IMG/VR virus record: IMGVR_UViG_3300014205_000194 | Coordinates: 28,872-92,871 of that record | Source: a virus | Lineage: Duplodnaviria; Caudoviricetes | Length of the DNA: 64,000 nucleotides | Reading direction: 5' to 3' (one strand) | In this document: positions 23,124-53,473 of the stretch, piece after piece | How the letters are laid out: every line of letters begins with the position of its first letter | Numbering within the stretch: the stretch's first letter is position 1 | The notes under the pieces: model-generated | Told to the model about the DNA's origin: nothing | Seen by the model: only the letters and a program-made list of their open reading frames with translations | Database searches by the model: none | Position numbers and translations under genes: made by a program

Positions 23124-24620
23124 ATGTTCTATACAAACGCAACGTTAGTAGGAAATAATATTCTGCTGCGCCAGGTAAAAAATGGCAAGCGAATGAATTC
23201 TAAAATACCATATTCCCCTAAACTCTATACCAAATCCAATAATAAGACTGGCTGGAAAACTATCCACGAAGAATATTTGGAAGAGTTACCATTCTCTGAT
23301 ATATACGAAGCAAAAGACTTCTGTAAGAAATATGCCGACATTCCGAACTTCGAAATCTTCGGAATGACCAACTATACCTATGCCTTTATCTCTGATAACT
23401 ATAAGGGCAAGATCAATTGGAATATGTCAGATATTTGTGTGGCATATACAGATATTGAAGTCGATTCTTCCAACGGATTTCCAAATCCGGACACAGCTGA
23501 TTCGGAAATAACTGCCATTACAATGATCGTTGGAGACAGGACTCTCGCGTTCGGACTTCCCAATTATAAAAAACACAAGGAAAATGTCGAATACTTCAAG
23601 TGTACTAACGAAGTTGCCTTGCTAGAATCATTTATTTCTTATTGGACTCTATTCTATCCAGACATTGTTACTGGGTGGAATTCCAAGCAGTTCGATATTC
23701 CCTATCTTGTCAATCGTATCCGTCGTCTGTTGGGCGATGAAGCAGTAAACAAACTGTCTCCGTGGGGCAAGGTTTCTCAGTATAAGACGGAGTTTCGCGG
23801 AAAAGAATCAATCAGTTACGATATCCTCGGAGTAATGCACCTAGATTATTACGAACTATATCGTAAGTTCTCGCCGGCACAGAATCAAGAAAACTTCAAA
23901 CTGGACACAATCGCGGGCGTAGAGCTCGGCGACAGTAAGGTAGATTATGCTGCCCTTGGATATAAAGATCTCACCGATCTATATGAACGCAATCCACAAC
24001 TATACATCGAATATAACATCAAAGATACAGAGATCGTCGTTCGGCTCGAAGAGAAGCTGAAGCTAATTGAATTGGCTCTTACTATTGCATACGATGCCAA
24101 GATCAATTATGAAGATGTATTCTCCCCCGTAAAGACCTGGGACGTTATCATCTACAACTATCTTAAGGAAAACGGCTATATTATTCCGCCGAACAATAAG
24201 CGGGCCAACAAACAAGCATATGATGGCGCGTATGTGAAGGATCCTGTTCCTGGGTTCTATAAATGGATATCGTCGTTCGACTACGAGTCTCTTTATCCAA
24301 AGCTGATCATGATGTATAACATATCACCCGAGACATTAATCGAGCCATATGATTACACAGAACAGATGTATGAAATTGTTTCGGGTCAGACAATTAACGT
24401 TGACGCAATCGTAAAGAAAACAGTAGATACATCCAAACTAAAAGAATTGGGCGTGACTCTAACTCCCAATGGACAACTGTTCAATATTCAGAAAGATGGA
24501 TTTCTTCCTGTACTAATGAAGCGCATGTTCAATGATAGAAAGATGTATAAGAATAAAATGTTGGAATGCGAAAGGGAATTGCAGGAAGTTAAGAAAGAGA
24601 TGACAAAGAGGGGGTTGTAG
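23124..24620 (+). CDS. 43A: DNA polymerase family B, N-terminal subunit (gp43A: exonuclease, motif A, first fingers helix)
   Basis: DIEV ExoI, TGWNSKQFDIPY ExoII, YNIKD ExoIII, SFDYESLYP motif A; ends in the fingers region with TAG. Confidence 0.95.
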   Translation: MFYTNATLVGNNILLRQVKNGKRMNSKIPYSPKLYTKSNNKTGWKTIHEEYLEELPFSDIYEAKDFCKKYADIPNFEIFGMTNYTYAFISDNYKGKINWNMSDICVAYTDIEVDSSNGFPNPDTADSEITAITMIVGDRTLAFGLPNYKKHKENVEYFKCTNEVALLESFISYWTLFYPDIVTGWNSKQFDIPYLVNRIRRLLGDEAVNKLSPWGKVSQYKTEFRGKESISYDILGVMHLDYYELYRKFSPAQNQENFKLDTIAGVELGDSKVDYAALGYKDLTDLYERNPQLYIEYNIKDTEIVVRLEEKLKLIELALTIAYDAKINYEDVFSPVKTWDVIIYNYLKENGYIIPPNNKRANKQAYDGAYVKDPVPGFYKWISSFDYESLYPKLIMMYNISPETLIEPYDYTEQMYEIVSGQTINVDAIVKKTVDTSKLKELGVTLTPNGQLFNIQKDGFLPVLMKRMFNDRKMYKNKMLECERELQEVKKEMTKRGL

Positions 24621-24630
24621 TCCCCCCCCC

Positions 24631-24885
24631 TCATACCCACGTGTGATCTTCGTTATATTCGTAATCGGAAATTGGTATGGCGACTACTCCCAATTCTATT
24701 AGTTGTTTGGCGGCTTTTGTCTTTTTATCGTCGACACGTTTAACAGAAGATAGAGTTGCTTTGGTGGTTTCTATACCAAGATTGCGCATGTGTTCTGCAA
24801 ATCTAGAAATATTAGATGAATGAGGTAAAACATAAACGCTGTTTTTATCCCGTTTGTCGATTACAATAGGTGTATAATTTAATTC
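24631..24885 (-). pseudogene. 5'-truncated minus-strand ORF remnant between gp43A and gp43B
   Basis: Stop-free frame ELNYTPIVIDKRDKNSVYVLPHSSNISRFAEHMRNLGIETTKATLSSVKRVDDKKTKAAKQLIELGVVAIPISDYEYNEDHTWV filling the spacer. Confidence 0.4.
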
Positions 24886-24902
24886 CTAGCGAGGTGATAC
24901 AA

Positions 24903-26307
24903 TTGAGTATAGAAAGTTTAACAAACGAAGAACTAATCATTCGTCATAAAGAACTCAGTAATGACGTAAGTAAATATAATAATCTCCAAATGGCAACAAA
25001 AATCCTTTAATGATGGAGGCGCTTATTCGTGAGGATAGGTGGAAAACTCTGTGAATTCGGTGAAACTCCAGAACGGACGATACCGAGCCAAGCCCATTAT
25101 ATGGGAAGGTGTAACGACTATTCCTACGGGAAGTACAGCCAAGTGGCTGGAAGCGCAGAGCAACTGATTCAGTTGATGAGATAGTCTAATCTGTATAGGA
25201 ATATACAGCAATCTATGGATAGATTTTGGTATGGTATTAACGACACCATATGAATATTAAATGCTTAATAGTCTCTATGGAGGATTAGCGAACGAATGGT
25301 TCCGCTTTTTCGACGTTCGTATGGCAGAGGGCATTACATCGGCTGGTCAGGTGGCAACCAAGAATATGGAACGCTGGTTGAATGTTTATTTAAATTCCAT
25401 CACGAAAACTAACAAAGACATAGCCGTTTATGCGGATACTGACAGTCTCTATATTTCACTCGAAGACATAGTCAATGCCGTGTTTAAAGATGCGCCCGAT
25501 ACAAAGAAAGTTATTAAATTTATGGACAAAGTTTGCTCCGATAGAATTACACCAGAGATTAATCGTATCTGCGAAGAACTAAAAGAGTACGTCAACGCCA
25601 AGGAAAATTCTATGGTAATGAAGCGCGAGGCGTTGATTGATTCTGCAATTTGGGTGGCCAAGAAGAGATATATCCTCAGTATCCATAATAACGAGGGAGT
25701 CGAATACGCAGAGCCTAAAGTCAAGGTTACTGGGTTGGAGTCTGTTCGATCTTCTACTCCTATGATTTGTCGCAATAAAATTAAAGAAACGTATACAATT
25801 ATGCTCTCGGGCGATGAAATGGAGACTCGAAAATACATCGCTGCATTCAAAGATGAGTTTACTTCTGCACCATTAGCCGATGTATCATTCCCGCGTGGTG
25901 TAAATGGTATGGTTGATTACAAAGATAAGTCTAAACAAAACACAACAATGGGCACTCCCGATATACAGAGTGAAATTAGACGATCTCCTTATATCAAAGG
26001 TACTCCGATCCACACCAAAGGCGCCCTAATATATAATCACCTACTCGACACCCTCAAGTTAACCAAGAAATATCCTAAGATTACTGACGGCGATAAGATT
26101 AAGTTTGTCTATTTGAAAATGCCTAATATTATCAATAGCGAAGTGATTGCGTTTCAAGATGCATTGCCTAGAGAGTTCAAGCTAGATGATAAAGTGGACT
26201 ATGCCAAGCAATATGAAAAGACCTATCTAGAGCCTATTAAGAATGTATTGAATGTATTGGGCTGGAAAGCGGAAGAAGAAAGTTCACTAGAAGATTTATT
26301 TGGTTGA
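24903..26307 (+). CDS. 43B: DNA polymerase family B, C-terminal subunit (gp43B); exons 24903-25007 and 25264-26307, 382 aa spliced
   Basis: GAGGTG RBS plus TTG start; exon 1 ends QMATKIL and exon 2 starts LNSLYGG, restoring motif B; YADTDS motif C, KKRY, clamp-binding SLEDLFG. Confidence 0.9.
25008..25263 (+). ncRNA. Group I intron (phage IA2-like), ORF-less, 256 nt
   Basis: 5' exon ends in U paired with IGS GAGG (25016-19); P2 with GUGA loop; P3 CTCTGT/GCAGAG; P7 GACTA/TAGTC; P7.1 and P7.2 hairpins; P8 CAACTG/CAGTTG; P9 CTGTAT/ATACAG; terminal G; splicing restores the frame. Confidence 0.92.
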
Positions 26308-36441: not shown

Positions 36442-36936
36442 ATGTCGAATGGTAATGACCCAACGTTACACAGCGTTAAGTTGGATCTTGAACTCCTTAA
36501 AAAGGATGTTACTCAAATTTCCACAATATGCGAGAAACTAGATGTAACAATCGATAAAATTCAAGAGTTAGCGGCTACTATGACTCGAATGCTTTCTCTT
36601 CATGAACAGAAGATAGAGAAACAAGAACAAAATGATAAAGAGCTGTTTTCACTCGTCGAACTAAGAAGGGTAGAGCTTTTGAGCGATATTAAAGAACTGA
36701 ACACCAGAGTGTCTGGGATTAATAAAGAATTCAACGACAAACTACAGAATACTGAAGATAAGTTAATCAAGGCCGTTCAGGATTTAAAGAAGGAAATTAC
36801 TGAAAAATCCGATACTAATAAGACTAAACTATCGGATGCAATCGAGAGCATAAACCGATGGAAGTGGATGATTATTGGCGGTGCCGTCGTAGTCGGTTAT
36901 ATTATTTCTATTACCATTAAATTAGCGGGTATCTAA
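36442..36936 (+). CDS. Coiled-coil protein with C-terminal TM
   Basis: Heptad-rich body, RWKWMIIGGAVVVG TM segment. Confidence 0.7.
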   Translation: MSNGNDPTLHSVKLDLELLKKDVTQISTICEKLDVTIDKIQELAATMTRMLSLHEQKIEKQEQNDKELFSLVELRRVELLSDIKELNTRVSGINKEFNDKLQNTEDKLIKAVQDLKKEITEKSDTNKTKLSDAIESINRWKWMIIGGAVVVGYIISITIKLAGI

Positions 36937-36965
36937 TTTACTTCTATATAGAATCACGTTATAAT
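36937..36965 (+). promoter_or_regulatory. Sigma70-type promoter for primase
   Basis: TTTACT-N17-TATAAT. Confidence 0.6.
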
Positions 36966-36994
36966 GATGGTTAACCTTTTGTTGTGGATATATT

Positions 36995-52340: not shown

Positions 52341-52820
52341 ATGATGACGAATTCAGTGACGGAAGATAAGTATGTTTGGGGCCCTGCCGCGGAAGATGGG
52401 GTTTGGCGTTGTAGTCGTCGAGGCAACCCGCTCTCACTGGTAGCCGAGGTAAAGCGCCAGCCCGACGATACCTGGAGCAAGTATATCGTCGGCAACTCAT
52501 CAATTCCGCTTGGTCGATATCCGGATGCTAGTAGCGCAATGAATGCAGCCGAGGTTGAATTGGATAGACCCCCGGTCGGTAACTATTGGGTTTCTGTTGG
52601 TGTTCGTACATCTGCATATTGCGCGCCCAACGGCAAGGTGCTCGGCGAAGTAGATGGGCCGGCGCTCGGTAGCCAATATTTCTATGCATCAAATGCATCC
52701 GGCAGATCATTCGGGAAGTTCGTTAACCTCGAATCGGCTAAGAAAGAAGTTGAGGTTCAACTGAATCCACTATGCGCTCGTAGTTCAGTCTGGAGAGAAC
52801 AACTGACTTCTAATCAGTAG
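52341..52820 (+). CDS. Hypothetical protein with two similar halves
   Basis: GAGGA RBS; LGRYPDASSAMNAAE and FGKFVNLESAKKEVE; stop lies inside tRNA-Arg. Confidence 0.65.
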   Translation: MMTNSVTEDKYVWGPAAEDGVWRCSRRGNPLSLVAEVKRQPDDTWSKYIVGNSSIPLGRYPDASSAMNAAEVELDRPPVGNYWVSVGVRTSAYCAPNGKVLGEVDGPALGSQYFYASNASGRSFGKFVNLESAKKEVEVQLNPLCARSSVWREQLTSNQ

Positions 52821-52851
52821 GTCGCAGGTTCAAATCCTGCCGGGCGCGCCA
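52774..52851 (+). tRNA. tRNA-Arg(UCU)
   Basis: Acceptor GCGCTCG/CGGGCGC, anticodon arm ACTGA-CTTCTAA-TCAGT, TTCAAAT T-loop, encoded CCA. Confidence 0.93.
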
Positions 52852-53050: not shown

Positions 53051-53127
53051 GCCCGAATAGTCCAACTGGCAGAGACATGAGCCTTAAACGTTCATCAGTG
53101 TGGGTTCGAATCCCACTTCGGGTACCA
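53051..53127 (+). tRNA. tRNA-Leu(UAA) with short variable region
   Basis: GCCCGAA/TTCGGGT, anticodon loop CTTAAAC, GTGGG-TTCGAAT-CCCAC, ACCA end. Confidence 0.88.
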
Positions 53128-53144
53128 AACATCGGGGTTATATA

Positions 53145-53408
53145 ATGAAAATTGTCATGATCGTTCATCGTTCTGATGGTTATACATATGCCTTCTCGGA
53201 AACATTCCCGGTCGTTTATGATTCCACAGAAAAGGCTCTTGTTGATTTTGAAAATAACTTGGTGGAGTCAGCAGGTAATACTTTTATGTTTCTGGGAGAA
53301 GAGTTTTACGCTTCCGATTTCACTAAGAGCAACGGGGAGCTAAATCCAGATGCATACCCAGAATTCCTAACAATAGATGAGTGGTTCTCTCAATATTCGG
53401 GCCTGTAG
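53145..53408 (+). CDS. Hypothetical protein
   Basis: DGYTY...PVVYDS...FLTIDEWF; stop lies inside the next tRNA. Confidence 0.7.
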   Translation: MKIVMIVHRSDGYTYAFSETFPVVYDSTEKALVDFENNLVESAGNTFMFLGEEFYASDFTKSNGELNPDAYPEFLTIDEWFSQYSGL

Positions 53409-53473
53409 CTTAAAGGTAAAGCGTGGAGCTCATAACTCCGGGAGTGCTGGTTCAATTCCAGCCAGGCCCACCA
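53399..53473 (+). tRNA. tRNA with CAU anticodon, probably Ile2 (lysidine type); elongator Met not excluded
   Basis: GGGCCTG/CAGGCCC with G1-C72 paired (not initiator), C4-G69 and C5-G68, loop CTCATAA, ACCA end. Confidence 0.85.

Follow-up and report, generated by a model that had tools for sequence, protein, structure and literature searches.

In Aeromonas salmonicida phage 25, gene 43, which encodes the T4-type family B DNA polymerase (PolB), is divided by an untranslated spacer into two cistrons, 43A and 43B, with a free-standing homing endonuclease gene of the seg type between them (PMC2993671, PMC2988022). Cistron 43B carries a group I intron of the self-splicing type, which has no endonuclease gene of its own and was predicted to use the free-standing one for its mobility; both accounts draw on Petrov, Ratnayaka and Karam 2010 (J Mol Biol 395:457). 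The record of this phage (NC_008208) shows 43B split by a group IA2 intron and a homing endonuclease coding sequence between 43A and 43B. Here we describe a comparable locus in an uncultivated T4-type phage, within a stretch of 64,000 nucleotides (nt) that comprises bases 28872-92871 of the IMG/VR contig IMGVR_UViG_3300014205_000194. This whole stretch is referred to as the window, and positions are those of the window unless another record is named. Its polymerase gene is broken twice, by a split at the fingertip into 43A and 43B and by an intron within 43B. We put at about 0.9 the probability that the locus encodes a fingertip-split PolB in three DNA pieces, with a 256-nt subgroup IA intron that lacks an open reading frame (ORF) of its own, is spliced as proposed below and has lost its endonuclease partner.

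Several other phages share parts of this arrangement. The class with a gp43 split at the fingertip and an untranslated spacer between the cistrons comprises phages 133, 44RR, 31, 25 and 65 (Petrov et al. 2006 and 2010, summarised in PMC3061061), and the separate 43A and 43B products of the phage 44RR/25 group co-purify with polymerase activity (PMC2988022). A second putative gene 43 intron was reported, with a truncated endonuclease gene, in Escherichia phage JSE (PMC2993671), while self-splicing group I introns are known from the family A polymerase genes of phages resembling SPO1 and T7 (Bonocora and Shub 2004, cited in PMC8351571). An earlier, sequence-only reading of the window had started from the premise that T4-type introns occur only in td, nrdB and nrdD and polymerase introns only in family A; the published introns of phages 25 and JSE contradict it. 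Rfam, run on the published genomes, gave 64.2 bits to the phage 25 intron and 42.9 bits, below threshold, to that of JSE. In the JSE genome (NC_012740) a second weak group I-like match, also below threshold (27.4 bits), lies outside gene 43, at 36756-36983 on the minus strand.

The closest counterpart is phage 25. In both loci a T4-type PolB is split at the fingertip and its 43B cistron has an ORF-less IA-type intron inside motif B; 43A has 498 codons in both and ends at one alignment position; and the intron core blocks, together with a 3' hairpin whose loop is conserved, can be aligned, with compensatory changes in the stems. The differences concern the site, the size and the surroundings. 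With the first base of the lysine codon of motif B taken as base 1, the intron of phage 25 is placed after base 31 (in the Leu codon of ...YGAL|G...) by the boundary rules given below, whereas that of the window follows base 9, i.e. 22 bases upstream. The former is 347 nt long and the latter 256 nt; a GIY-YIG endonuclease gene of the seg type is intact in phage 25 where the window has only a 282-base spacer; and the two 43A proteins are only 33% identical. The introns are thus related, their sites lie 22 bases apart, and the guide of each matches its own exon. The window holds a phage 25-type intron, of a kind already known, in a distant uncultivated T4-type phage and at another position of motif B, close to that of phage 25 and used repeatedly.

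In phage JSE, too, a T4-type PolB gene harbours a putative group I intron. Its position is different, near codon 403 between two annotated polymerase coding sequences, and that gene has no fingertip split. With phages 133, 44RR, 31, 25 and 65 the window shares two cistrons, a break at the fingertip and a spacer, yet it belongs to a different lineage, its nearest full-length relatives being unsplit PolBs (46-52% identity). The introns of SPO1-like and T7-like phages also interrupt a phage replicative polymerase in a conserved catalytic segment, but the host enzyme is of family A, not B. Finally, T4 td carries the endonuclease ORF (I-TevI) inside its intron, unlike the window, where the intron has none.

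The intron was detected with the Rfam model RF00028 (Intron_gpI), whose curated gathering score is 50 bits. The match at 24998-25208 on the plus strand covers model positions 1-253 of 253 with 81.3 bits (E 4.2e-19) and is the sole such match in the 92.9 kb contig. Exon 1 reads Lys-Ile-Leu and then enters an in-frame TAA (25008-25010), and the frame of LNSLYG starts at 25264. Boundaries were sought by three rules: a U at position -1 paired to G in P1, an intron-terminal G and a restored reading frame. Only 25008-25263 give all three, with U25007 preceding the 5' splice site and G25263 at the intron end. The interrupting element and its parts are as follows.

25008-25263, plus strand: group I intron of subgroup IA type, 256 nt, identified by Rfam, covariation and sequence
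25004-25009 with 25014-25019, plus strand: P1 (from the fold); the internal guide pairs with six bases, four at the end of the exon and two at the start of the intron, with a U25007.G25016 wobble at the splice site
25020-25041, plus strand: P2, nine pairs with a GNRA loop
25047-25053 with 25154-25160, plus strand: P3
within 25056-25109, plus strand: P4-P6
25116-25120 with 25182-25186, plus strand: P7
25121-25132 and 25136-25149, plus strand: P7.1 and P7.2, hairpins between the P7 5' strand and the P3 3' strand
25161-25175, plus strand: P8
25192-25207, plus strand: P9 with a GNRA loop
25211-25224 and 25228-25251, plus strand: two extra 3' hairpins
25116-25186, plus strand: catalytic core (P7 5' strand, P7.1, P7.2, P3 3' strand, P8, P7 3' strand), from the Rfam alignment and from blocks invariant in eight introns

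The thermodynamic fold and the Rfam alignment agree on helices P1 to P9 and on the two 3' hairpins. All the elements listed in the sequence-only reading (P1 with its U-G pair, the P2 GNRA loop, P3, P4-P6, P7, P7.1/P7.2, P8, P9 and the terminal G) were found in this way. No endonuclease-sized ORF is present within the 256 nt, the only ORFs being of 42-62 codons and overlapping the conserved core.

Comparison of eight related introns with RNAalifold gave 54 base pairs, 34 of which show compensatory changes, and recovered P1, P2, P3, P4, P7.1, P7.2, P8, P9 and the 3' hairpin. The P7 strands are complementary but invariant across the eight and are uninformative for covariation. The splice-site pair of P1 (alignment columns 8/18) is U.G in six of the eight introns, and the pairs flanking it covary with each host exon. 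Every one of the eight ends in G at the position that restores the frame, and the GNRA loops of P2 and P9 are kept though their stem sequences differ. P7.1 and P7.2, extra hairpins typical of subgroup IA, both covary. The td, nrdB and nrdD introns of T4 and that of phage 25 43B are of this subgroup (IA2-like); for the window intron the IA2-like label is tentative and derives from alignment to the phage 25 intron (IA2 in GenBank). The compensatory changes in 34 of the 54 pairs strongly indicate selection on the structure in this lineage, the window copy included. The sequence-only reading, in which an endonuclease-free group I intron interrupts motif B of a T4-type PolB, is supported in this respect.

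The motif B lysine corresponds to K560 of RB69 gp43, which contacts the phosphates of the incoming nucleotide and is followed four residues on by N564 (PMC3061061). Excision of 25008-25263 joins two Leu codons to give KIL|LNSLYG and restores the K-x3-NS-x-YG motif. The result was compared with 80 related PolB loci taken from IMG/VR (39-52% identity). The tail of the window's 43A, exon 1 and the start of exon 2 correspond to one frame in one piece in 79 of them; the remaining locus shows a frame change, maybe a sequencing error. In the multiple alignment KIL|LNSLYG matches the motif B of the homologues column for column, without a gap at the junction. The junction had been named beforehand in the sequence-only reading, and it is the one that the boundary rules single out and with which the 79 homologues agree. 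That reading also recognised the ATG at 25261-25263 for what it is, the last three bases of the intron. This ATG is in frame with exon 2; a protein started there would lack the motif B lysine (codon 24999-25001).

It is central to the alternative that fares best, namely that the intron is a decayed, splicing-dead relic and the gene either a pseudogene or the source of three polypeptides (43A, a peptide of 35 residues and a product begun at ATG 25261). The in-frame position of the ATG would suit such a state, as would the loss of any endonuclease gene that could maintain the intron, and the contig is a metagenomic fragment, an estimated 54% complete, of unproven viability. All core helices are nevertheless intact, the Rfam score is well over the threshold, pairing has been kept by compensatory changes relative to seven related introns, and the three coding pieces are all open and conserved. 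Judged by eye, no evident Shine-Dalgarno-like run precedes the ATG, which lies in the 3' tail of the intron, and a polymerase made without the motif B lysine would lose the phosphate-contacting residue (K560 of RB69, PMC3061061). We regard a dead relic as improbable.

The second break lies upstream of the intron, and the gene is made up of the following parts.

23124-24620, plus strand: cistron 43A, 498 codons; N-terminal domain, exonuclease domain, start of the palm and first finger helix; stops at the fingertip
24603-24634: G/C-rich hairpin over the 43A stop codon, terminator-like on the minus strand (24634 to 24603); its 3' arm is a poly-C run
24621-24902: intercistronic spacer, 282 bases, with no counterpart in unsplit homologues, which run straight through
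24891-24897 and 24903-24905, plus strand: Shine-Dalgarno-like purine run and TTG start of 43B, read from the sequence
24903-25007, plus strand: 43B exon 1, 35 codons; returning finger helix, then the motif B lysine codon (24999-25001) and Ile-Leu
25264-26307, plus strand: 43B exon 2, 347 codons and stop; rest of motif B (LNSLYG...), motif C (DTDS), palm and thumb; Pfam DNA_pol_B

Cistron 43A matches the Pfam families DNA_pol_B_exo1 (E 2.4e-22) and DNA_pol_B (E 4.6e-20), and its stop codon is at 24618-24620. In alignments the split point coincides with the fingertip of unsplit homologues and with the break in phage 25. Exon 1 of 43B aligns with the ...LQ-A-KK... segment of homologues, and exon 2 is, over its full length, 46-49% identical to the PolBs of T4-like cyanophages and of IMG/VR. 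As the gene is split at the fingertip, the exon that precedes the intron is a micro-exon of 35 codons with a start codon of its own; the first exons of three intron-bearing relatives described below (L108, L113 and L150) are of similar size, 34-36 codons. The sequence-only reading had the intron and its junction right but overlooked the fingertip split into 43A and 43B. A promoter scan of 24400-25050 gave nothing above chance. A TATAAT hexamer preceded by TG is present at 24870-24880, some 25 bases 5' of the 43B start; for want of a matching -35 hexamer the scan did not call it.

The best PolB relatives among cultured phages are those of T4-like cyanophages (about 47% identity), and a UvsX-like recombinase gene is located just 3' of the polymerase, in the gene order of phage JSE; on these two grounds we call the polymerase T4-type. 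A megablast of the polymerase gene against phage records returned no match, and a scan of metagenome contigs for closer relatives returned none above about 54% identity.

The insertion site is not confined to the window. IMG/VR was scanned with a 16-base signature of the J6/7-P7 segment and 80 loci were kept; in seven of them, with six distinct introns (L110, L150/L145, L108, L121, L113 and L163), the signature lies inside a T4-type PolB gene. The alignment of each to the window protein starts exactly at the first residue of exon 2. The site thus recurs, to within two bases, in seven IMG/VR contigs. Sequence rules place the splice point after base 9 in the window and L150/L145, after base 8 in L108, L113, L121 and L163, and after base 7 in L110. 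Rfam scores are 92-98 bits in five of the seven; the introns of L150 and L145 are identical to each other and fall under the threshold, yet can be aligned throughout. All the intron-bearing PolB genes of these loci are also split at the fingertip. The L110 intron core is 81% identical to that of the window over 175 nt, while the host proteins of the seven loci are 33-44% identical to the window's. In blastn searches of phage records with the window and L113 introns, the matches listed were confined to the core and concerned introns of other genes and phages; no cultured T4-type phage with this insertion site was among them. The listed matches to the window intron core include introns of Klebsiella, Pseudomonas, Shigella and Bacillus phages (72-80% identity).

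Most of the intron-bearing relatives have an endonuclease gene or a recognisable remnant of one in the slot between the cistrons. The contents of the slots, including that of the window, are listed below.

L163 slot, sense strand: homing endonuclease gene (PHROG 655, E 5e-42)
L110 slot, antisense strand: HNH-type gene related to that of L163, frameshifted (E 5e-16)
L108 slot: DUF559/Vsr-like endonuclease with a helix-turn-helix (Pfam E 4.5e-7)
Phage 25 slot: GIY-YIG seg-type gene (PHROG 314, E 3.5e-46)
L113 and L121 slots: short remnants of the C-terminus of an L163-type gene
Window slot, 24634-24885, minus strand: open frame, 84 codons from stop to stop; contains an ATG-started ORF of 52 codons at 24631-24789

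No intact homing endonuclease gene could be recognised beside the intron-bearing cistron of the window with Pfam, PHROGs, tblastn or a large protein search. The 84-codon minus-strand frame is followed by the terminator-like minus-strand hairpin that overlaps the 43A stop, and it had no match in Pfam, PHROGs, phage tblastn or a search of 5.8 billion proteins. Its lone similarity is a 17-residue match (pairwise E 0.002) to the C-terminus of the antisense ORF of L110, at the equivalent position beside the 43A stop; tblastx against the slots of the relatives likewise gave just one match, of 16-17 residues. The frame may represent what is left of the 3' end of a decayed endonuclease gene in antisense orientation, which is plausible but unproven. 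As the slot holds at most such a decayed remnant, the window intron is probably a stranded passenger.

The spacer could also be viewed as a sequence that is itself removed from expression, as a second, unrecognised intron or by translational bypassing, so that a single polypeptide chain results. Phage T4 uses translational bypassing in gene 60, which provides a precedent, and the hairpin at the 43A stop codon is stable (-18.3 kcal/mol, z -1.9). Against this, an Rfam scan of the spacer for a second intron gave no family even at E 1, 43B has its own Shine-Dalgarno-like run and TTG start, and in relatives the slot accommodates whole endonuclease genes between stop and start codons. Moreover, the homologous split in the phage 44RR/25 group yields two co-purifying subunits (PMC2988022). 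We hold removal of the spacer to be less probable still than a dead intron, and retain two separate cistrons.

The source contig has a CheckV completeness estimate of 54%. DNA nearly identical to it is present in a landfill metagenome (public run X1), probably its source, and fragments of it in runs of a second study. A single contig of 45.9 kb from X1 covers the whole split and intron stretch, an independent-study contig (X3 record 20) bridges 24773-25120, i.e. part of the spacer, exon 1 and the 5' part of the intron, and the 282-base spacer is covered by second-study contigs (X2 record 12, X3 record 20). When the contigs of four DNA runs, with partial cover in X2-X4, were aligned to the locus, none contained a join of the kind expected from an allele without the intron or without the spacer. 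In principle another organism's group I intron could have been joined into a phage contig during assembly, since 25044-25152 cross-matches group I cores from other organisms of the same metagenomes (X1 records 2-8). This is very unlikely and the least probable of the alternatives, given the 45.9 kb contig and the independent contig that crosses the exon-intron boundary, a guide that pairs with this gene's own exon, and a related intron at the same place in seven other PolB genes. The poly-C run just past the 43A stop (24622-24630) has nine C in the window and three more in the Logan contig of X1, a difference that reflects either homopolymer length variation or assembly.

According to the reading we favour, a fingertip-split polymerase with a spliced intron, 43A and 43B would be translated separately, the latter from the TTG that follows the 282-base spacer. 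The intron would fold in the transcript, and an external guanosine would attack after U25007; the freed exon end would then attack after G25263, joining the two Leu codons and rebuilding motif B as K-I-L-L-N-S-L-Y-G. The gp43B so produced would associate with gp43A into an active enzyme, as was shown experimentally for the phage 44RR/25 group. The intron itself was probably brought in by collaborative homing, through a neighbouring free-standing endonuclease that cut the intron-less motif B and has since been lost at this locus. The analysis shows what the intron is, how it is built and where it begins and ends, that the joined exons are colinear with intronless homologues, that the gene is divided into two cistrons, that the insertion site recurs, and that relatives have endonuclease genes in the 43A-43B slot. 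Splicing, subunit assembly and past mobility are inferred here from the intron family and from the experiments on phages 25 and 44RR. That replication depends on self-splicing with guanosine triphosphate (GTP), as the sequence-only reading had it, is a reasonable inference.

Some observations count against this interpretation. P1 is short, with only six pairs, and the P10 pairing of the guide with the 3' exon appears weak by eye; splicing and the exon junction are predicted; the tie between the spacer and an endonuclease gene consists of a 17-residue match; and the assembly of subunits is extrapolated from phages with a 43A that shares only 33% identity with that of the window.

The distribution of splice points, after bases 7, 8 and 9 in the uncultivated phages and 22 bases downstream of the window site in phage 25, raises the tentative idea that motif B is a hot spot of homing for one intron lineage and that the slot preserves a series of endonuclease decay. 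Across the loci the slot contains intact genes of three endonuclease families, on either strand, frameshifted copies and short remnants, and in the window almost nothing. We consider this idea possible but doubtful. If the offsets of one or two bases between splice points are real, they would be a rare documented case of intron sliding, and the set would form a ready series for testing the collaborative-homing model of mobile intron origin.

A maximum likelihood tree of PolB (31 rows, 800 columns, quick search) united 21 unsplit intron-less polymerases in one clade (SH-aLRT 95). The carriers of both split and intron all lie outside this clade, on branches that are long and unresolved; JSE and one unsplit locus are placed with them. 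The carriers are a biased sample, having been found through the intron signature; with this bias and these branches, their placement fits a single old origin followed by vertical descent and the lateral spread of a cassette alike, and the tree cannot distinguish between the two.

This essential polymerase is easily misannotated: gene callers will give a truncated 43A, miss the micro-exon and report a C-terminal fragment misstarted at ATG 25261, and the correct product needs both the split and the splice to be taken into account. The known picture of group I intron biology is unchanged by these findings. They extend the phage 25 arrangement, in which a split polB is combined with a neighbouring endonuclease and an intron that lacks one, to T4-type phages of a distant, uncultivated branch, and they show repeated use of the motif B site. 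The related loci, with endonucleases at differing stages of decay, could serve to test how endonuclease-less introns come to be mobilised and later stranded.

Unlike the window, several of the relatives have further insertions in PolB, and the genes of this group appear to have been invaded at several sites. In L150 (3216-5137) and L145 one such insertion is located at motif C (DTDS). In L150 the frames on its two sides match the N-terminal and C-terminal portions of Pfam Intein_splicing, with E-values of 9e-7 and 8e-5 that fall short of the curated cut-off; this suggests an intein, possibly disrupted, besides the intron. L163 (minus strand, about 1-1500) also has a motif C insertion, with a 362-codon ORF that shows a weak restriction-endonuclease-like match. 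Insertions in the 43A part were found in L108 (3650-4657), with a 242-codon minus-strand ORF that has no Pfam match, and in L150 (685-1577), with an ORF (748-1269) that has an HNH-like motif.

Elsewhere in the window, two genes upstream of 43A, the ORF at 21143-22066 matches a PHROG nucleotide-sugar epimerase (E 1e-48). Three tRNA genes, common in T4-type phages, are located on the plus strand at 52774-52848, 53051-53124 and 53399-53470 (Rfam 54-72 bits).

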